Both the position numbers and the translations under genes were made by a program. Below are positions 1 through 63,800 of a DNA stretch of 64,000 nt, piece after piece; the first letter of the stretch is position 1; every line of letters starts with the position of its first letter. The notes under the pieces were generated by a model. That model had not been told where the DNA came from. It made no database searches and saw nothing but the letters and a program-made list of their open reading frames with translations. Origin of the DNA: Escherichia phage JN02; sequence record MT782071.1. One strand, given 5' to 3'.

Positions 1-287
1 ATTCCACAGGAATTAAGGGTTCTGTAAACACATTAAATACTCTTATAAATGGCACCAACCCAAATGGTTCGACTGTTGAAGAACGCGGTATATTGCCTAC
101 AGTTAAAAGTCATGATACGACAATTAATGGTTTAACTTCTAGAATTGCTACTCTTGAAACTGATTTGGCCGCTGCAGAAGCTGAAATCCAAACTCTTAAG
201 GACGCTGGATATATTGAAGATGCTCCTTCAGACGGTAAATTCTATGTTCGCAAAGATGGTGCATGGGTTGAACTTCCTACAGCTTAA
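1..287 (+). CDS. wac: fibritin (whisker), C-terminal part; 5' end lies upstream of window
   Basis: Open in frame from the window edge (frame of nt 3). C-terminus GYIEDAPSDGKFYVRKDGAWVELPTA matches the T4 fibritin foldon. Confidence 0.9.
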   Translation, partial: STGIKGSVNTLNTLINGTNPNGSTVEERGILPTVKSHDTTINGLTSRIATLETDLAAAEAEIQTLKDAGYIEDAPSDGKFYVRKDGAWVELPTA

Positions 288-293
288 TGAAAA

Positions 294-307
294 GGGCCTT
301 CGGGCCC
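294..307 (+). terminator. GGGCC-UUCG-GGCCC stem-loop after wac (weak U-run; terminator or stability hairpin)
   Basis: Perfect 5-bp GC stem with UUCG tetraloop directly after the wac stop. Confidence 0.4.
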
Positions 308-319
308 TAAAGGATTTAT

Positions 320-1246
320 ATGTCAGGTTATAATGCACAAAACCCTAAAGAATTAAAGGATGTAATATTACGTCGTTTAGGCGCTCCTATTGTAAATGTT
401 GAATTAACTACAGATCAAATTTATGATTGTATTTCACGAGCGTTAGAACTTTATGGCGAATACCATTTTGACGGGTTGAATAAAGGTTTCCATGTATTTT
501 TTGTTGATGACGAAGAAAAATACCGTCACGGCGTATTTGATATGCGTGGTTCTAACGTATTTGCTGTAACAAGAATTATAAGAACAAACGTTGGCTCTAT
601 TACTTCAATGGATGGTAATGCAACTTATCCATGGTTCACTGATTTCCTTTTAGGAATGGCCGGTGTTTCAGGTGGTATGGGTAGTAATTGCGGTAAATTC
701 TACGGTCCGAACGCTTTTGGCGCTGATCTCGGGTATTATTCTCAATTAGTATCTTATATGGGTATGCTTCAAGATATGATTGCTCCTCTTCCAGATTTTT
801 GGTTTAACTCTGCAAACGAGCAATTAAAAGTAATGGGTAACTTTAGACAGAAAGATGTCATTATCGTTGAATCGTATGTTCGCTCTTATATCGAGACCCA
901 TAAGATGGTAGGAAATACAGTAGGGTACGGTCAAGTAGGTCCTCGTGATTCATGGTCTATTTCTGAACGTTATGATAATCCGGACCATAATTTGGTCGGA
1001 CGTCGAGTTGGTGAAGATCCTGCAACTAAACAAGGCGCATATAACAACCGCTGGGTTAAAGATTATGCAACTGCATTAGCTAAAGAGCTTAATGGACAAA
1101 TTCTTGCTAAACATCAAGGTATGATGTTACCCGGTGGTGTCACTGTTGATGGTGTTCGATTAATTGAAGAAGCTCGTTTAGAGAAAGAAGCTTTACGAGA
1201 AGAGTTATATTTACTGGACCCTCCTGCAGGTATTTTGGTAGGTTAA
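320..1246 (+). CDS. 13: neck protein gp13
   Basis: 308 aa (T4 gp13 about 309 aa); position between wac and 14. Confidence 0.85.
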
Positions 1247-2061: not shown

Positions 2062-2886
2062 ATGATGTTTGGTTATTTTTACAACTCGTCGTTCAGGCGA
2101 TATATCACAATGATGGGCGATTTGTTTTCAAATATCCAAGTTAACCGTCAATTGTCTACAGGCAATAAATTAATTAGAGTTCCTATTACGTATGCATCTA
2201 AAGAGCACTTTATGATGAAACTTAATAAATGGACCTCTATAAACTCACAAGAAGATGTGGCTAAAGTCGAAACTATTCTACCACGTATAAATCTCCAAAT
2301 GGTAGATTTCGTTTATAACCCAACGTTTAAAACGAATATATTGAATAACTCTCTTTTGAGTAAATCGACTAAGGATATTGTAGACCAATACAACCCATCA
2401 CCAATTAAAATGATTTTTGAACTGAGCATCTTTACTCGTTATGAAGATGATATGTTCCAAATCGTTGAGCAAATTATTCCATATTTTCAGCCGCATTTTA
2501 ATACGACTATGATTGAGCAATATGGGCAGGATATTCCATTTGAAAGGGATATTAAAGTCGTATGGATGGCGGCCGCAATGGATGAACAAATAGACGGTGA
2601 TAATTTATCTCGTCGACGTTTAGAGTGGTCATTAACATTTGAAGTAAATGGATGGATGTATCCTCCGGTAGGCGCAGCTGAAGGCCTTATTAAAACGACT
2701 TATCTTGATTTTCATGCTAATGAACGAGACCTTCAAACAGCCGCCAGCGTTTTTGAATCAGTTGATACAGAAATTAAACCGAGAGACGTTGAAGCACAAG
2801 ATTGGAATGGTGAAGTTGAACAAACTTATACTCATGATATTCCAATCCCGACTCCACCAACCCCTCCTGGTCCTAGAAAACAATAA
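2062..2886 (+). CDS. 15: tail sheath stabiliser / tail completion protein gp15
   Basis: 274 aa (T4 gp15 about 272 aa); synteny. Confidence 0.85.
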   Translation: MMFGYFYNSSFRRYITMMGDLFSNIQVNRQLSTGNKLIRVPITYASKEHFMMKLNKWTSINSQEDVAKVETILPRINLQMVDFVYNPTFKTNILNNSLLSKSTKDIVDQYNPSPIKMIFELSIFTRYEDDMFQIVEQIIPYFQPHFNTTMIEQYGQDIPFERDIKVVWMAAAMDEQIDGDNLSRRRLEWSLTFEVNGWMYPPVGAAEGLIKTTYLDFHANERDLQTAASVFESVDTEIKPRDVEAQDWNGEVEQTYTHDIPIPTPPTPPGPRKQ

Positions 2887-5239: not shown

Positions 5240-7222
5240 ATGGCACTTCTCTCTCCGGGCGTTGAGCTCAAAGAAACTACCGTACAGAGTACTGTAGTTA
5301 ATAACTCCACTGGTACTGCTGCCCTGGCTGGAAAATTCCAATGGGGACCGGCATTCCAGATTAAACAAATCACTGATGAAGTTTCATTAGTTGATATGTT
5401 TGGTACTCCTAATACGGATACAGCAGATTATTTCATGTCTGCTATGAACTTCCTTCAGTATGGTAATGACCTTCGTGTTGTACGCGCAGTTGATCGTGAT
5501 ACTGCTAAGAACTCATCTCCTGTAGCAGGCAATATTGAATTCACAATCTCTGCTGCTGGTAGTAACTATGCAGTCGGTGATAAAATTATCGTTAAGTATT
5601 TGACCGAAACTGTTGAAGCAGATGGTTATGTCACTTCAGTTGATGTCGATGGTAAAATTCTTAACATTTATATCCCAACCGGTAAAATTATTGCTCGTGC
5701 AAAAGAAATTAATGAATATCCGGCATTGGGTTCTAACTGGACCGCCGAAGTTGCCAGTTCTTCTTCTGGTCTCTCTGGCGTTATTACAATTGGTTCTATC
5801 GTAACCGATTCGGGTATTCTGTTAACTGAAGTTGAAACTTCTGAAGAAGCTATTACTTCTCTAACTTTCCAAGAATCTATTAAAAAATACGGTGTCCCGG
5901 GCGTAGTTGCTCTTTATCCTGGTGAACTTGGCGACCAGATCGAAATTGAAATCGTATCTAAAGCAGACTATGACAAAGGTGCTTCAGCCCAGTTAAAAAT
6001 TTATCCTGATGGTGGTACTCGTGCATCTACGGCTAAAGCAATCTTTGGGTATGGTCCACAAACTGATGACCAATATGCAATTATCGTTCGTCGTAACGAT
6101 GCAGTAGTTCAGAGCGTAGTTCTTTCTACTAAACGTGGTGAACGCGATATCTATGGTAGTAATATCTTTATTGATGATTTCTTTGCTAAAGGCGCAAGCA
6201 ATTATATTTTCGCTACAGCACAAGGTTGGCCAAAAGGTTTCTCTGGCGTAATCAAACTGGGTGGTGGCTTATCATCTAATGAAACAGTTGACGCTGGTGA
6301 TTTAATGGAAGCTTGGGATTTGTTTGCCGACCGCGAATCTGTTAATGCGCAGTTGTTTATTGCCGGTTCTTGTGCAGGTGAATCTTTAGAAGTTGCTTCT
6401 ACAGTTCAGAAACATGTTGTAGCAATTGGTGATTCTCGCCAAGATTGTTTGGTTCTTTGCTCACCGCCACGTGCAACTATAGTCGGTATTCCTGTTAATC
6501 GTGCAGTTGATAATCTGGTTGATTGGCGTACTGCGTCAGGAACTTACACTGATAATAACTTTAATGTAAGTTCTACTTATGCTGCTATTGACGGTAACTA
6601 TAAATATCAATATGACAAATATAATGACGTGAATCGTTGGGTTCCATTAGCTGCTGATATTGCTGGTCTTTGTGCTCGCACAGACAATATTTCTCAGCCT
6701 TGGATGTCTCCTGCCGGTTATAACCGTGGACAAATTCTTAACGTTATTAAGCTTGCAATTGAAACTCGCCAAGCGCAGCGTGATCGTTTGTATCAGGAAG
6801 CTATTAACCCTGTTACTGGTACCGGTGGTGATGGGTATGTTCTGTACGGTGATAAAACTGCCACGTCTGTTCCTTCACCATTTGACCGTATTAACGTTCG
6901 TCGTTTGTTCAATATGGTTAAAACGAACATTGGATCAGCATCTAAATATCGCCTGTTTGAATTGAACAACGCATTTACCCGTTCTTCTTTCCGTACAGAG
7001 ACTTCTCAATATCTACAGGGTATTAAAGCTCTCGGTGGTGTATATAACTTTAAAGTTGTTTGTGATACTACCAATAACACCCCAGCAGTTATCGACCGTA
7101 ATGAATTTGTAGCTACTTTCTACTTACAACCTGCCCGCTCGATAAATTATATTACGTTGAACTTTGTAGCAACAGCAACTGGTGCCGATTTCGACGAACT
7201 AATTGGTGCTGTAGGTGGCTAA
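5240..7222 (+). CDS. 18: tail sheath protein
   Basis: 660 aa (T4 gp18 659 aa); synteny; preceded by a late promoter. Confidence 0.95.
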   Translation: MALLSPGVELKETTVQSTVVNNSTGTAALAGKFQWGPAFQIKQITDEVSLVDMFGTPNTDTADYFMSAMNFLQYGNDLRVVRAVDRDTAKNSSPVAGNIEFTISAAGSNYAVGDKIIVKYLTETVEADGYVTSVDVDGKILNIYIPTGKIIARAKEINEYPALGSNWTAEVASSSSGLSGVITIGSIVTDSGILLTEVETSEEAITSLTFQESIKKYGVPGVVALYPGELGDQIEIEIVSKADYDKGASAQLKIYPDGGTRASTAKAIFGYGPQTDDQYAIIVRRNDAVVQSVVLSTKRGERDIYGSNIFIDDFFAKGASNYIFATAQGWPKGFSGVIKLGGGLSSNETVDAGDLMEAWDLFADRESVNAQLFIAGSCAGESLEVASTVQKHVVAIGDSRQDCLVLCSPPRATIVGIPVNRAVDNLVDWRTASGTYTDNNFNVSSTYAAIDGNYKYQYDKYNDVNRWVPLAADIAGLCARTDNISQPWMSPAGYNRGQILNVIKLAIETRQAQRDRLYQEAINPVTGTGGDGYVLYGDKTATSVPSPFDRINVRRLFNMVKTNIGSASKYRLFELNNAFTRSSFRTETSQYLQGIKALGGVYNFKVVCDTTNNTPAVIDRNEFVATFYLQPARSINYITLNFVATATGADFDELIGAVGG

Positions 7223-36151: not shown

Positions 36152-36520
36152 TTATGCAACTTTAATCCAATTGTCTAAATTTAAAACACCTTTGGCTTTC
36201 ATTTTTTCTATCAGGTTATCTGCTGTAATGCGTCCATTTTGATACCATGTAACATCTTCAGAGTAACCAGTTTCTTCGTCAACGTATGTTTCTGAACGAA
36301 TTTTACCGGTAATAATAGTTTTTAATTCGTATGTGTCACCTGTGAAAAGGTTTGCTAACACAATTTTCCAAGAGAAATCATCAGAAGGACCTTCAGGGGT
36401 CATACAACCTACGAACTCAAATTGCTCTTTGTATAACATCCACTGGAATTCTTTAATTTCGATAGCTTTATAACCATCGTGGTCTTTACATTTGATGTAT
36501 GAGTTCAGATTGATTTTCAT
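36152..36520 (-). CDS. hypothetical protein (122 aa)
   Basis: ORF with an early promoter upstream. Confidence 0.5.
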   Translation of the reverse strand: MKINLNSYIKCKDHDGYKAIEIKEFQWMLYKEQFEFVGCMTPEGPSDDFSWKIVLANLFTGDTYELKTIITGKIRSETYVDEETGYSEDVTWYQNGRITADNLIEKMKAKGVLNLDNWIKVA

Positions 36521-36562: not shown

Positions 36563-36591
36563 ATAGTAACACATCCTACAGGAGAGTAAAC
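36563..36591 (-). promoter_or_regulatory. T4 early-type promoter (GTTTAC, 17 nt, TGtTACTAT)
   Basis: Minus-strand tGTTTACtctcctgtaggatgtgTTACTATagac. Confidence 0.55.
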
Positions 36592-36627
36592 ATCTTTTTA
36601 AACTTTTTCTGCCCTAAACGCACAAAA

Positions 36628-36645
36628 GGGAGACCGAAGTCTCCC
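36628..36645 (-). terminator. terminator GGGAGAC-UUCG-GUCUCCC + U-run (on the minus transcript)
   Basis: Same hairpin as after genes 23, 35 and 32; lies directly after the small basic ORF. Confidence 0.7.
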
Positions 36646-36650
36646 TAAAA

Positions 36651-36830
36651 TTATGCAGCAACCTTTCCAAAACGAGAAGCATCATCTCGAAGAACTGCAC
36701 GTGCTCTGCGCATGATCTTCTCAACTGTTTGATTAATACGAGAGTTCGACCCACGCTTGTATCCAGCGCGTTTAGAGGTACCATCAACTTTCTTTTCAAC
36801 TGCTTTCTTTGCTTTAGCTTGTTTTGCCAT
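36651..36830 (-). CDS. small basic protein (59 aa), not in the ORF track
   Basis: Translation MAKQAKAKKAVEKKVDGTSKRAGYKRGSNSRINQTVEKIMRRARAVLRDDASRFGKVAA; a terminator follows; below the 60-aa cutoff. Confidence 0.45.
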   Translation of the reverse strand: MAKQAKAKKAVEKKVDGTSKRAGYKRGSNSRINQTVEKIMRRARAVLRDDASRFGKVAA

Positions 36831-37093
36831 TATAAATTCTCTTTAAATGAAAATGCAGGACTTATTGACATTGCCTGCGCAAGCCCTCAAGGGGAACATA
36901 GGTTTTGGATATTTAACGACAGGATAACCATAAGCCCGTCATCATACCAACCACGACTTAGACAGATAACCTTTTTCTGACGCGTGATAGTACAAAATAC
37001 ATTCAAGAGGTACACCGTAAAATTGTCGGGGTCTTAAAACTATAATGATTCGCAAATCATTAATCAGACAATTCGACGGCTCCTCGATTTAAC

Positions 37094-37342
37094 TTACTTC
37101 AGGGTAATAACAAAATGACGAACTGCTTTACGTGCTGCAGAAGCCAGAGGCTTAGCATATTTCAATTCATCTTTCTGGACCAGGATATCGCGAAGATCGG
37201 CTTGTGCTGGATTCAGATGTTTGAAATACTGTAAGATTTCAAGAGCTTCGGCTTCAACATCAATAGATGCGCCGTAATTGTCATGGCCATTATTCCATGC
37301 ATGGCGTTGCAGTTCAAGAGCGTGTTGTAATTGTTTAGTCAT
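37094..37342 (-). CDS. rIII: 82-aa protein in the position and size of T4 rIII
   Basis: 82 aa, same as T4 RIII; adjacent to gene 31; call rests on size and synteny only. Confidence 0.4.
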   Translation of the reverse strand: MTKQLQHALELQRHAWNNGHDNYGASIDVEAEALEILQYFKHLNPAQADLRDILVQKDELKYAKPLASAARKAVRHFVITLK

Positions 37343-37466
37343 TTTAAATTCTCAATTCGAGATAATATTTAGTAGCCACGTTCTTCTGAATTTCACCTTC
37401 TTTCGACAAGTCTCTCAGTTGTAGGCTACTGCTTAGAAGAGTGTTCTCTTCATATAGTTATTTATA

Positions 37467-37799
37467 TCACTTATAAAGACATGGAATAGCTTTATAGTGG
37501 CATGTTACGAATTTCTGTTTAATTTCTTTAGGATGTTTAAGACCTAAAGCCACAAATGGATGTGGAACATTTCGAATTTGTCCAACTGGTAGTGAAGTCA
37601 AATCACCGACTTCAACAAAACCTTCAGGAACATCAGGACCTACAGAATGAACTACACATAGTTCAGGAACTTCACCTTGAACACGTTTACCAATCACAAG
37701 TCCTGATTCGGTAACTTCTTCATCACCTGCTTGAGCGGGTTCAGAAACCAGAATGACATATTCACCAACAGCACGAATTGGGAGTTGTACTTCAGACAT
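37467..37799 (-). CDS. 31: co-chaperonin gp31 (GroES analogue)
   Basis: 110 aa (T4 gp31 111 aa); GroES-like pattern; synteny next to cd. Confidence 0.9.
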
Positions 37800-37856: not shown

Positions 37857-38153
37857 TTACATAAGAAGCAAACGTTCTACCGGAGTACCATCAACCGAAA
37901 TTACTTTATCAAGGCGGAAAGAACGCCACTGACCTAACTTGGTATCGAATGCTCGAACTGATTCACGAGGTTCATAACGAACTTCTGTTGCTGGATTGTT
38001 ATTTTCGTATTTGACTTCAAGTTCATCGCGCGAAGCAAACATCGTACGAACATCACCGTTAGCCTTTTCAAATACAACACAATGAACGCCTACAGACAGA
38101 ATAGTTTTAATACGTTCACGAAGAATCATAGTTTCTTTTTCAGTTAAAATCAT
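37857..38153 (-). CDS. hypothetical protein (about 98 aa from ATG; track start is GTG)
   Basis: Internal ATG (MILTEKETM...) lies just after the cd stop. Confidence 0.45.
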   Translation of the reverse strand: MILTEKETMILRERIKTILSVGVHCVVFEKANGDVRTMFASRDELEVKYENNNPATEVRYEPRESVRAFDTKLGQWRSFRLDKVISVDGTPVERLLLM

Positions 38154-38154
38154 A

Positions 38155-38736
38155 TTATTCACCACAAAAGTTTCGGATTTGTTCCCAATTCAGAGAACGA
38201 AGATTATTACGAGAGTACTGAATTACTTCAATACCGGCTTGTTTTAGAATGTCTGCCCAATTTTCAGGAGATCGATCGTATAATTCTGCATATACAACCT
38301 TTTTAATACCTGACTGCGTAATAGCTTTAGTGCAATCAGGACATGGAGAAAGCGTCGTATATAACGTAGCGCCTTCAATAGAATTACCTTTACGAGCTGC
38401 AAACAAAATTGCATTCAGTTCCGCATGGATTTCATTATTAGCAGACCATGCACTATGAGCGGCCCGAGGTTCTTTAGCCAAAACAAAATTATCTATCCGT
38501 CCAAATGCTGTAGTGCCTTCTTTATGTCCAGCAACTATGACCGGGCTTGGTTTATTCTTCAACCAACCATTTTCGGATGCATGTTCACAACAGTTAACAC
38601 CACCGGCTGGTGAGCCATTATATCCAGTAGAGATAATGCGCCCATCTTTTTCAATGACGGCACCAACTTTCCATGAACAACATTTTGATTCTTGAGAAAT
38701 CAGATATGCAATCTGAAGGTATGTGCTAGCTTTCAT
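38155..38736 (-). CDS. cd: dCMP deaminase
   Basis: 193 aa, same as T4 Cd; zinc motifs HAELNA and PCPDC. Confidence 0.95.
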   Translation of the reverse strand: MKASTYLQIAYLISQESKCCSWKVGAVIEKDGRIISTGYNGSPAGGVNCCEHASENGWLKNKPSPVIVAGHKEGTTAFGRIDNFVLAKEPRAAHSAWSANNEIHAELNAILFAARKGNSIEGATLYTTLSPCPDCTKAITQSGIKKVVYAELYDRSPENWADILKQAGIEVIQYSRNNLRSLNWEQIRNFCGE

Positions 38737-60884: not shown

Positions 60885-60892
60885 GAGGACTT

Positions 60893-63800
60893 ATGGCTAC
60901 ATTAAAACAGATACAATTTAAAAGAAGCAAAGTGGCAGGAGTTAATCCTACTGCAGCACAATTAGCCGAAGGCGAATTAGCGATAAACTTAAAAGATCGA
61001 ACTCTTTTTACTAAAGATGACCTCGGTAATATTATTAGCCTAGGCTTTGCTAAGGGCGGGGATATTAACGGTAATGTAACTCAAAATGGTGATTATTTAC
61101 AAAACGGCACATATAATCTTAATGGAACCCAGTTTGTTTATGCAGGAAAGTATATTGAATTCTTGCCAAAAACTGCTGGAAATGGCGCTTGGGCTAACCA
61201 ACATCAGAATAAAGCCCCTATCTTTACAGATTTGAGTTCAACTACTTCAACTTCTGAATACCACCCTTTGATTAAGCAACGTTATAAAGATGGTACTTTT
61301 TCAGTAGGTACATTAGTAAGCGAAGGCTCATTTAGAGTCCATTATATTGATTCTACAGCTCCAGACAATTCTAAACACTGGGTCTTTAACCGTAATGGTA
61401 ATTTTATTGTAGATTCTGGTAGTATTGAGGTCCGCACAGGTAATATTTCTGCGTCCGGAAATATTAACTCCGCTAATGGTATAGTTTCTGCTCCACAAGT
61501 TAATACGAAAACCATTGTTTTGGACACAAAAGCATTCGGACAATATGATTCGCAATCATTAGTTCAATATGTTTATCCTGGAACAGGTGAAGAAAATGGT
61601 ATAAACTATCTTCGTAAAGTTCGAGCTAAATCGGGCGGAACTATTTACCATGAAATCGCTTCAGCTCAAACTGGTAAGAATGATGAAATTTCTTGGTGGA
61701 CCGGAAATACACTTACTACTAAATTAATGGGTCTTCGTAATGATGGCGCAATGGTATTACGTCGTTCACTTGCTATTGGCACAATTACCACTGATGAAAA
61801 TACTAACAACTATGGCTCTCCTACTCCAATGGGAGAAAGATATATTGCTTTGGGCGATGCTGCAACTGGTTTAAAATATATTAAGCAAGGCGTTTATGAT
61901 TTAGTAGGTAATTGGAATTCTGTTGCTTCTATTACTCCTGATAGTTTCCGTAGTACTCGTAAAGCATTATTTGGACGCTCAGAAGACCAAGGCGGAACCT
62001 GGACAATGCCTGGAACCAACGCCGCGCTTTTATCGGTTCAAACCCAGGCTGATACAAACAATGCAGGTGATGGTCAAACCCACATTGGATATAATTCTGG
62101 CGGTAAATTTTCTCATTATTTCCGTGGTACAGGTCAGATGAATATCAATACCCAACAAGGTATGGAACTTAACCCAGGTATTCTTAAACTGGTAACCGGC
62201 GCAAATAATATACAGTTTTATGCCGACGGAACTATTTCTTCCATTCAACCTATTAAATTAGATAACGAGATATTTTTAACTAAATCTGATAATAGTGCAG
62301 GTCTTAAATTCGGAGCCCCTAGCCAAGTTGATGGCACAAGGGTTATCCAGTGGAATGGCGGCACTCGCGCTGGTCAGAATAAGAGTTATGTAACTGTAAA
62401 GGCTTGGGGTAATTCATTTAACGCATCCGGCGATCGTACTCGTGAAACAGTTTTTGAAGTAGCTGACGGGCAGGGATATTATTTTTATTCTCAGCGCGTA
62501 GCTCCAACCGGTTCAGAAACTGTGGGACCTGTTGTAACCCAGTTCAATGGACAAGTTAATGCTAGAGGGAGCATTATCACCGATGGAAGTCTTAGAGTTA
62601 ATGGATTAAGTGCATTATCCGGACAAGTTACTATGGATAACGGGCTTGTTTTATCCGGTGGTGGTTCTATTACCGGCCAAGTTAAAATCGGTAATACCGT
62701 AGATGCTTTCCGTATTTACAATGCTGAATATGGAGCTATTTTCCGTCGTTCTGAAGCGTCTTTGCATATTATACCTACACTTAAAGATGCAGGTGAAAGT
62801 GGTGGAATAAGTAATCTCCGTCCACTAAGTATTAGTCTTAATAATGGTATGGTTCAAATGCGCCATTCTGTTACGTTAGGTGATGATGGTGCTGGCGGTA
62901 ATATGGTGACCGTTGATAATGATAATAAACTTGTTGTTATAACTAGCCATAGTCGCATTTCTCCTAATTACCGTATGCAGTTAGGTCAGTCGGCATACAT
63001 TGATGCAGAATGTACTGATACTGCACGACCTGCTGGAGCCGGTTCTTTTGCTTCACAAAATAATGAAAACGTTCGTGCTCCGTTCTATATGAATATTGAT
63101 AGAACAGATACAAGCACTTATGTTCCTATTGTGAAACAAAGATACGTTCAAAATAATAGTTGCTATTCTATTGGTACTTTAATTAATGGTGGTAACTTTA
63201 GAGTTCATTATCACGAAGGTGGTGACGGCGTTTCTACTGGTGCTGTTATAAAGGATCTTGGATGGGAATTTAATAAAAACGGTGATTTTTATTCTCCTGG
63301 TAAATTAGGCGCTGGTAATGTTCGTATTGGTACTGATGGTAATATCACTGGCGGTTCTGGTAATTTTGCTAACTTGAATACCACAATAAATAACCTTAAG
63401 ACGGATATTGTCTCAAGTTATCCAATTGGTGCTCCGATTCCTTGGCCTACTGATACACCTCCTGAAGGTTACGCCATAATGGAAGGTCAAACATTTGATG
63501 CTGAGTTGTATCCTAAGTTAGCTGCTGTGTATCCTTCCGGCTCTCTGCCTGATATGCGTGGTCAAACTATCAAGGGTAAACCATCTGGGCGTGCTGTATT
63601 AAGTACAGAAGCAGACGGTGTTAAGTCACATAGCCATAGTGCAAGTGCATCAAGCACAGATTTGGGTACTAAAAATACGTCAAGTTTTGATTATGGTAGC
63701 AAAACGACTTCAAGCTTTGATTATGGTACTAAGACCAGTAATACCACTGGCAACCATAACCATACAGTAAGTGGTAATACTAGTTCCGCTGGTGCTCACC

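Follow-up and report, generated by a model that had tools for sequence, protein, structure and literature searches.

A conserved, covarying pseudoknot RNA in the modular gap between rIII and 30.9 of T4-like phages

The mRNA leader of T4 gene 32 contains a 5' pseudoknot that nucleates the autoregulatory binding of gp32 (reviewed in PMC3014915), and the T4 tRNA cluster gives rise to the stable small RNAs rnaC and rnaD (species 1 and 2 RNAs), which are released by tRNA processing. T4-like phages are also known targets of the defence system ToxIN. In the Pectobacterium phage PhiTE, pseudo-ToxI is an RNA mimic of ToxI, the antitoxin of this type III toxin-antitoxin system (PMC3475682). Here we describe the non-coding gap between genes rIII and 30.9 in a 64-kb stretch of DNA from Escherichia phage JN02 (MT782071.1, 64,000 nucleotides; the window), and within this gap an apparently undescribed family of pseudoknot RNA, which we call PK. 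Although T4 is the best-studied lytic phage, neither a riboswitch nor a regulatory RNA acting in trans had been characterised in it by 2010 (PMC3014915), and literature searches on 30.9, gp30.9, T4 small RNAs and pseudo-ToxI gave no later description of the gap region; an expression study of rIII and 30.9 (Driukas and Nivinskas 2003, Biologija) lay outside the coverage of these searches, and a T4 omics paper does not mention the region.

PK shares with pseudo-ToxI the character of a short pseudoknot RNA in a phage intergenic region, the PhiTE RNA being transcribed in infection and PK being known here from sequence, and one ToxI-like repeat lies in the same gap of the relatives ATK47, VR7, L033 and L096 and, in diverged form, in T4. 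Unlike PhiTE, however, the window has no ToxI-like module, and PK is longer (about 50 nt), differs in sequence and has no detectable bacterial counterpart; PhiTE moreover needs more than 1.5 repeats to escape ToxIN (PMC3475682), whereas the T4-like phages carry a single repeat. The T4 gene 32 leader provides a second parallel, as an H-type pseudoknot upstream of a T4 gene where the ribosome-binding site can be occluded, but PK has no sequence relation to it, occurs also apart from 30.9, and has in gp30.9 only a candidate for the bound protein. Finally, as small structured RNAs amid tRNA genes, rnaC and rnaD can be compared with PK in the phage contig L091 and with the gap cassette in phage phi92 (see below), although PK in T4-like phages lies in mRNA between protein genes and not in a tRNA cluster. 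A blastn comparison of rnaC and rnaD with the gap (word size 7) found no similarity, only chance matches of 9-16 nt.

The gap was singled out in an earlier note, made from the letters and a list of open reading frames (ORFs), as an unusually ORF-poor region, and this description is borne out: the window has four stretches of at least 150 bp free of ATG-started ORFs of at least 50 aa, two of which touch the window ends, leaving the rIII-30.9 gap and 60885-61341 (457 bp) as the only internal ones. The further statement that no ORF exceeds roughly 25 codons is correct for ATG starts but fails once GTG and TTG starts are admitted, with mechanical ORFs at 36887-37015 (minus strand, 42 aa), 36942-37055 (minus strand, 37 aa) and 36729-36980 (plus strand, 83 aa). 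The gap is conserved beyond the neutral rate, and more than the flanking coding DNA. Over its final 118 nt, up to the ATG of 30.9, it shares 87-99% identity with loci L011-L024 and L031, and in the same loci the DNA of rIII is 80-84% identical, its third codon positions 63-72%, and the DNA of 30.9 65-99%; the gap sequence is present in 773 phage records, T4 among them. The gap is under selection and is not spacer. One could suppose that this selection acts on a hidden small protein-coding gene, or that the gap holds a decayed one, since ORFs of 37-83 codons overlap it and some records annotate ORFs there. In an alignment of 19 sequences, however, the 118-nt stretch is mostly invariant and yet carries 1-nt insertions and deletions (GACG-GG/GACGAGG, CCT-GTCG/CCTGGTCG and CC-AAAACC/CCAAAAACC), and the structural modules described below come and go regardless of frame, so that the gap has no conserved reading frame; in addition, the substitutions follow base pairing rather than codon position. 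The gap cannot be coding, and we give a concealed gene practically no credence.

What is conserved in the gap is a set of RNA helices (Table 1). The structure drawn on an alignment of the gap (A1) contains 9 pairs that changed on both sides, compared with 2.3 ± 1.0 in shuffled alignments (none of 500 reached the observed value) and at most 2 when the pairing partners were slid, and 98% of its cells are paired. Most of this covariation signal comes from the long branched hairpin M1 (RNAfold energy -24.2 kcal/mol), in which 5 of the 13 pairs of helix 2 and 2 of the 8 pairs of helix 3 changed on both sides. At seven helix positions the minus-strand RNA has a G-U pair that would be a C-A mismatch on the opposite strand, and the structure therefore belongs to the sense RNA. 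The gap thus holds a conserved, covarying, non-coding RNA structure on the sense strand, which is the opposite of the unconserved spacer that an alignment might have revealed, and which agrees with the earlier note, where a long structured 5' leader, a small RNA or some cis-regulatory element was suggested for the empty stretch.

The part of this structure that we consider new is PK, an H-type pseudoknot in which the loop of stem 1 (AUGGUU) forms stem 2 with a downstream AACC(U)AU, the two being separated by the A-rich linker GUUAAAUAUCCAAA. An alignment of 23 distinct PK sequences from several genera (A2) gives a covariation score of 0.318, against 0.123 ± 0.018 for shuffled alignments (none of 500 as high) and at most 0.151 for slid ones, with 8 pairs changed on both sides. 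The exchanges include U-A/A-U/G-C and C-G/G-C/U-A in stem 1 and G-C/U-A/G-U/C-G in stem 2, and stem 2 reaches 7-10 bp in KMB19, L033, L035, L026, L027 and L025. A covariance model built for PK (R1) finds a single copy in the window, at 66.3 bits (E 6e-16). Immediately downstream in the window lies G, a motif consisting of a mini-hairpin of 3-4 bp and an invariant CUUG, which occurs once in the window, always stands immediately 5' of another hairpin, and is found in every rIII-30.9 gap that we examined, where it comes after PK or else follows the stop codon of rIII directly.

The covariance-model search proposed in the earlier note returned no known family: when the gap, its 151-nt core, a 1.1-kb stretch and six relatives were compared with 4227 Rfam models, only sub-threshold chance matches were obtained. 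Since Rfam is blind to a genuine ToxI array as well, absence from it is no proof of novelty. An alternative in terms of known RNA classes is that PK and G together constitute a pistol-type self-cleaving ribozyme or a small pseudoknot riboswitch. The linker of PK can be likened to the GUUAAAUA-type A-rich linker that follows P1 in the env25 pistol. The layout of PK also resembles the start of pistol (RF02679), where the loop of the 5' P1 hairpin is pseudoknotted with downstream sequence, and pistol ribozymes are frequent near phage genes (PMC4604425). On the other hand, neither the Pistol model nor any of the riboswitch models of Rfam matched the 151 nt even at E<=10, Pistol at this threshold gave nothing on the 1.1-kb stretch either, no P2 helix can be drawn and the P2/P3 arrangement is missing, the junction after the G hairpin does not have the fixed 2 nt of pistol, and G is not adjacent to PK in several lineages, all of which makes a ribozyme or riboswitch very improbable.

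Three further ideas about PK were tried and dropped. A preQ1-like riboswitch, for which the hairpin, pseudoknot and A-rich linker would speak, finds no Rfam match and lacks P2. A leader peptide starting at the conserved AUGAUG before stem 1 is excluded by the fact that this sequence is not universal and that its frame is broken by insertions and deletions, while an extension of stem 1 (AUG/CGU) explains it. A stimulator of readthrough or frameshifting for rIII does not agree with a distance to the stop that ranges from 5 to 150 nt.

The modules of the gap vary in presence and order among relatives, as seen in a survey of 40 rIII loci from IMG/VR together with annotated phages. The constant part of the gap is made up of PK, G, a hairpin at the end and the ribosome-binding site. 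Modules M1 and M2 may be present or missing; M2 is absent from T4 and RB51, has its inner stem CAGA/UCUG changed to CAGC/GCUG in L014 and L029, and in L029 stands directly before the 30.9 ribosome-binding site. In other phages M2 is replaced by module X, about 150 nt of GC-rich sequence (CGGCAAGUGCAUGC...GCUAACGGUGUGCAACAGAUAAGAG) closed by a covarying stem, in which 17 of the 44 predicted pairs show compensatory changes; X is absent from the window and has no match in Rfam or in E. coli genomes or plasmids. Hairpin H has its stem swapped to GAACUGG/CCAGUUC in L032 and L035, with the loop retained (CAGUGUCAAUAAGA / CGAUGCCAAUAAGA). The last hairpin, which includes the Shine-Dalgarno region of 30.9 (SD hairpin, helix 13), has 93% of its cells paired and shows changes of U-G to C-G or U-A; an equivalent CUCC/GGAAG hairpin occupies the same place in other lineages and occurs also upstream of rIII in the window. 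The order varies too: in the window PK comes first and G second, but in KMB19, L026, L029 and L050 G stands directly behind the rIII stop, ahead of PK, and in L033 about 200 nt lie between the two. A further long hairpin, in the gene 31-rIII spacer of the window (37372-37429, minus strand; GUAGCC UACAACUGAGAGACUUGUCGAAAGAAGGUGAAAUUCAGAAGAACGU GGCUAC / TACAAC..GUCGAAAGAAG.UGAAA..GAAGAACGUG), has a homologue that precedes 30.9 in nine other loci. Its outer and inner stems covary, and each locus examined has it before rIII or before 30.9, never both. T4-like phages thus keep, lose and re-order the gap modules as cassettes.

The main alternative to the reading that we prefer below is a purely cis-acting 5' leader of 30.9, in which PK, G, H and the SD hairpin set the translation or stability of the 30.9 mRNA, possibly through autoregulation by binding of the basic gp30.9, after the manner of the gene 32 leader, or as a 5' stabiliser left by cleavage upstream. 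In its favour, the gap at its smallest (119 nt in HY01, 120 nt in L026) consists of PK, G, a hairpin and the ribosome-binding site of 30.9, at which a minimal gap always ends, and the Shine-Dalgarno region is paired in both sequence families. The protein itself is a small basic one, modelled as helical with a disordered tail rich in Lys, and these features are compatible with nucleic-acid binding. The difficulties lie in the mobility of the parts: the shifting positions of G and PK are hard to square with one integrated leader, the long hairpin precedes rIII in one set of phages and 30.9 in another, in L045 a 30.9-like gene stands just 9 nt past rIII and PK is missing, and PK occurs without 30.9 altogether in two loci described next. 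We therefore regard a leader acting purely in cis as possible but rather unlikely. Of the long structured 5' leader proposed in the earlier note, a mosaic of autonomous modules has taken the place, and only the last hairpin still looks like classical translation control; this hairpin would act in cis, occluding the 30.9 ribosome-binding site and tuning translation.

PK is an autonomous module. An IMG/VR pattern scan followed by model R1 identified a copy in L091 (54.8 bits, E 1.5e-12) at 6795-6850 on the minus strand, where it lies on the same strand as the tRNAs and takes up exactly the tRNA-Asp/tRNA-Pro spacer; this contig carries terminase, portal and HNH endonuclease genes beside an array of 12 tRNAs, has no homologue of rIII, 30.9, 31 or 30.8, and belongs to an unrelated phage. 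A scan of metagenomes for PK gave 14 T4-type loci and one other, the 1.7-kb contig L129, where a non-coding stretch holds a ToxI-like module and, some 190 nt downstream of it, PK (features at 42-97 and 285-306, minus strand). The ToxI-like module of L129 is diverged (17 of 22 bases), the contig has none of rIII, 30.9, 31 and 30.8, and its nearby small ORFs match no PHROG. The 308-nt spacer between tRNA-Gln and tRNA-Asn in the T4-like Salmonella phage STP4-a (L139, 1396-1703) holds a 60-nt element that is 85% identical to the stretch between the two modules of L129, and which is another non-coding module common to tRNA clusters and such RNA islands. Given that PK stands without 30.9 inside tRNA arrays, the term small RNA fits it better than the term leader.

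A whole T4-type cassette has likewise entered a tRNA cluster, between tRNA-Gly and tRNA-Gln, in phi92 (L004, 2409-2839), muut (L005) and the IMG/VR contigs L048 and L049. The insert is a circular permutation, in which the gap is followed by the 30.9 ATG, joined to the final 26 rIII codons and TAA, and it is bordered by TTTAT at either end; a circular intermediate or a tandem duplication would leave such an arrangement. Its copies are 98.8-100% identical to Tequatrovirus sequence. The phi92 product gp113, annotated as putative rIII, is the rIII fragment of this inserted cassette. One could accordingly speculate that the modules are selfish or neutral recombination cassettes, spread in the manner of promoter-early stem-loops (PeSLs) by illegitimate or mini-circle recombination and conserved through recent transfer: they are gained, lost and shuffled, and mini-circles are documented in T4-type phages for PeSLs, which are likewise short conserved non-coding cassettes where modules are exchanged, with a circular-intermediate signature (PMC2839356, PMC4122927). 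The gap modules differ from PeSLs, however, in lacking the terminator and the promoter half that defines them, and in their covarying non-terminator structures. Compensatory changes keep the helices, which shows selection on RNA structure and not just recent copying, and loops and linkers are conserved across genera. A purely selfish or neutral origin of the conservation is thus, in our judgement, improbable.

A bacterial counterpart is found for one module, M0, a single ToxI-like repeat in the rIII-30.9 gap of many relatives. It lies right after the rIII stop in ATK47, VR7, T4, RB51 and L032 and deeper in the gap in L033, L096 and KMB19. M0 matches the 36-nt repeat AGGTGATTTGCTACCTTTAAGTGCAGCTAGAAATTC at 31 of 36 positions in ATK47, 32 of 36 in VR7, and 30 of 33 in both L033 and L096; the differences keep the stem, and a pair of them (UUGC/GCAG to UCGC/GCGG) is compensatory. 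The situation is that of pseudo-ToxI in PhiTE (PMC3475682). The M0 of T4 is more diverged, at about 70% by reading of alignment A1. In the E. coli plasmid pNMEC-O75B (L088, 1428-1627), 5.6 copies of this repeat stand directly upstream of an annotated ToxN/AbiQ toxin, and this array is the ToxI antitoxin. M0 also matches tandem arrays on small enterobacterial plasmids, and such arrays are present in 52 of 5,426 complete E. coli genomes (~1%). When the gap modules were compared by blastn with E. coli genomes and plasmids, M0 alone gave bacterial matches, with none for PK, M1, M2, G, H or X. Among the papers covered by our literature search, none reports such a repeat for T4-like phages, and those on ToxIN and T4, the TifA study (PMC10853763) included, give only a protein inhibitor and leave the ToxI-like copy unmentioned. 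The sequence AAAU in the PK linker was considered as a ToxN cleavage motif and discarded, as it is not conserved (AAAC in L033 and L038).

Taken together with the transcription signals, these observations lead us to view the gap as a small-RNA island read through from rIII, with PK as a trans-acting small RNA, a reading that we prefer tentatively and put somewhat short of an even chance. Promoter and terminator scans found no sigma-70-like, late (TATAAATA) or MotA-box promoter and no terminator inside the gap; a single weak early-like match (37021-36994) is mismatched and not conserved in T4. The only late-type match in 36601-37480 is the promoter TATAAATA before rIII (37459-37466, minus strand). 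Without promoter and terminator of its own, the gap must be made by read-through from the rIII promoters, ending at the terminator of 30.9; it is the non-coding intercistronic part of the rIII-30.9 transcript, and a small RNA would need release by processing. The roughly 50-nt PK would be cut out of this precursor and then work in trans, and where it sits in a tRNA array, its release would fall to the enzymes of tRNA processing; its being kept alone at places where tRNA processing would set it free suggests that it works apart from 30.9. Its most likely job would be to bind a protein, and the leading candidate role is that of a decoy for, or an inhibitor of, an RNA-targeting nuclease of host defence, suggested by the ToxI mimic in the same gap of sister phages, by the ToxI-like module beside PK in L129 and by the company of tRNA arrays. 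By this analogy an anti-defence function of PK is conceivable, although doubtful. A bolder version, in which the gap would be an RNA-only anti-defence island whose interchangeable RNAs (PK, the ToxI mimic, X, M1 and M2) would each decoy or inhibit a different RNA-targeting immune nuclease of the host and circulate between phage families through tRNA arrays, strikes us as unlikely.

Several observations weigh against a trans-acting PK with a role in defence. The window has no M0, neither at up to 3 mismatches to the ToxI-like consensus nor in alignment A1, where it shows a gap, and a PK pattern run against 185,579 GTDB species genomes gave 35 scattered single matches, about the number estimated by chance, and no tandem array. 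PK is therefore no recognisable copy of a bacterial antitoxin. In T4-like loci the presence of PK tracks that of 30.9: wherever a T4-like locus has a clear homologue of 30.9, as 32 IMG/VR rIII loci do, PK lies upstream of it, model R1 finding one copy per locus, and the six loci lacking such a homologue (L042-L047) lack PK as well, which equally fits a leader of 30.9. The pseudoknot itself is not uniformly strong, stem 2 being weak in the lineage of the window (4+2 bp with a bulge), and the whole gap folds no better than shuffled sequence (z -0.75) on either strand; the structural signal of the gap is covariation, not stability. The phi92-type copies, being nearly identical to Tequatrovirus sequence, are recent transfers and say little on selection. 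Finally, we infer both trans action and anti-defence from genomic context only.

The locus as a whole belongs to a T4-like Mosigvirus, a genus of the RB69 group: with 901 bp spanning the gap as query, Shigella phage SSE1, Escherichia phage PhAPEC2, ATK47 and others match at 95-97%. Every gene of this neighbourhood is on the minus strand (Table 1), and T4 has the identical layout, with a gap of 244 bp at 130541-130784. ATK47 annotates a 10-bp 'ori type 2 repeat' by the start of 30.9; a replication origin here finds no other support, and we know of no T4 origin that maps to the rIII-30.9 gap.

Table 1 Features of the rIII-30.9 region and related modules. Coordinates refer to the window unless another sequence is named; the modules of the gap are read on the minus strand, 5' to 3', in the order M1, M2, PK, G, H, SD hairpin
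Feature	Position	Strand	Description
cd	38155-38736	-	
31.1	37857-38165	-	
gene 31	37467-37799	-	
rIII, 82 aa, upstream gene	37094-37342	-	ORF list; PHROG 1457 lysis inhibition accessory protein, E 8e-42; annotated rIII in relatives
rIII-30.9 gap, 263 bp	36831-37093	-	bounded by rIII stop 37094-37096 and 30.9 start 36828-36830
M1, long branched hairpin	37007-37085	-	GAGG..CCUC / CCGU..ACGG / AAUUGUC..GACAAUU; apical hairpin UAAUGAUU-UGCG-AAUCAUUA
M2, hairpin	36952-36986	-	CACG..CGUG enclosing CAGA-AAAAGGUUA-UCUG; alignment A1
PK, H-type pseudoknot, ~50 nt	36894-36946	-	stem 1 AUGACGGG/CCUGUCGU
G, motif GUUCCCCUUGAGGGCUUG	36880-36897	-	mini-hairpin of 3-4 bp plus invariant CUUG
H, hairpin	36855-36878	-	GCAGG/CCUGC (5-bp stem); conserved 14-nt loop CAAUGUCAAUAAGU
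SD hairpin	36836-36854	-	AUUUUC-AUUUAAA-GAGAAU; pairs 30.9 Shine-Dalgarno region (AAGAG)
gene 30.9, 59-aa basic Lys/Arg-rich protein	36651-36830	-	annotated in T4 (NP_049823), ATK47, PhAPEC2; PHROG 1427
intrinsic terminator, closes rIII-30.9 unit	36621-36645	-	GGGAGAC-UUCG-GUCUCCC-UUUUGUG; ARNold-annotated at same site in ATK47, PhAPEC2
early-type promoter for 30.8	36563-36591	-	GTTTAC-N17-TACTAT; read from sequence
30.8	36152-36520	-	
M0	ATK47 (L001) 2087-2120	-	
M0	VR7 (L007) 855-889	-	
M0	L033 1834-1864	+	
M0	L096 11891-11922	-	
M0	T4 (L003) ~1749-1779, = T4 genome ~130748-130778	-	
module X	L012, L023-L025, L027, L028, L030, L033, L034, L036-L041, L008 (ESh24); e.g. ~L039 1855-2010		in rIII-30.9 gap

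The 59-aa basic ORF that the earlier note had placed next to the gap is real but not new, being the annotated T4 gene 30.9, and the canonical terminator hairpin said to follow it is present (GGGAGAC-TTCG-GTCTCCC followed by TTTTGTG in the DNA). The 50-nt stretch with this terminator (36611-36660, minus strand) has a folding energy of -19.4 kcal/mol. Both the terminator and the early promoter of 30.8 were overlooked by simple scans. The promoter fits the consensus of T4/PST PeSLs (TTTACW-N17-TAYWAT; PMC4122927), and 36563-36645, comprising the terminator of 30.9 and the early promoter of 30.8, is a typical PeSL cassette.

The protein family of gp30.9 comprises 65 clusters, none with a function; where a cluster carries a source name or lies on a long contig, it comes from a T4-like phage. 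Searches gave no informative Pfam match, one short 570-bp fragment (P0038) bearing an unrelated Pfam tag, and no meaningful sequence match in the PDB. An AlphaFold2 model predicts a disordered Lys-rich N-terminus followed by helices at residues 20-26 and 30-54 (mean pLDDT 68), so that its fold is in essence one long helix. Some records extend 30.9 upstream into the non-coding gap, giving versions of 72-102 aa, and an old T4 entry has 97 aa. Several phage records and one UniRef entry name a homologue of 59-68 aa '1,4-alpha-glucan (glycogen) branching enzyme, GH-13-type', which is evidently a propagating annotation error.

The protein is ordinary, and the new part is apparently the pseudoknot RNA in the gap. 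T4 itself would gain from this analysis a pseudoknot that is conserved and backed by covariation and, as would many of its relatives, a ToxI antitoxin copy. The rIII-30.9 gap lies in a hotspot for small structured RNAs, among them, in T4, a mimic of an antitoxin. If the gap should prove to be an anti-defence island, PK would be the first of a new class of phage anti-defence RNAs without a bacterial template. If PK is indeed trans-acting, there would be small phage RNAs of a class that travels from mRNA spacers to tRNA arrays and back, and screens for phage anti-defence functions, which consider only proteins, would miss a layer.

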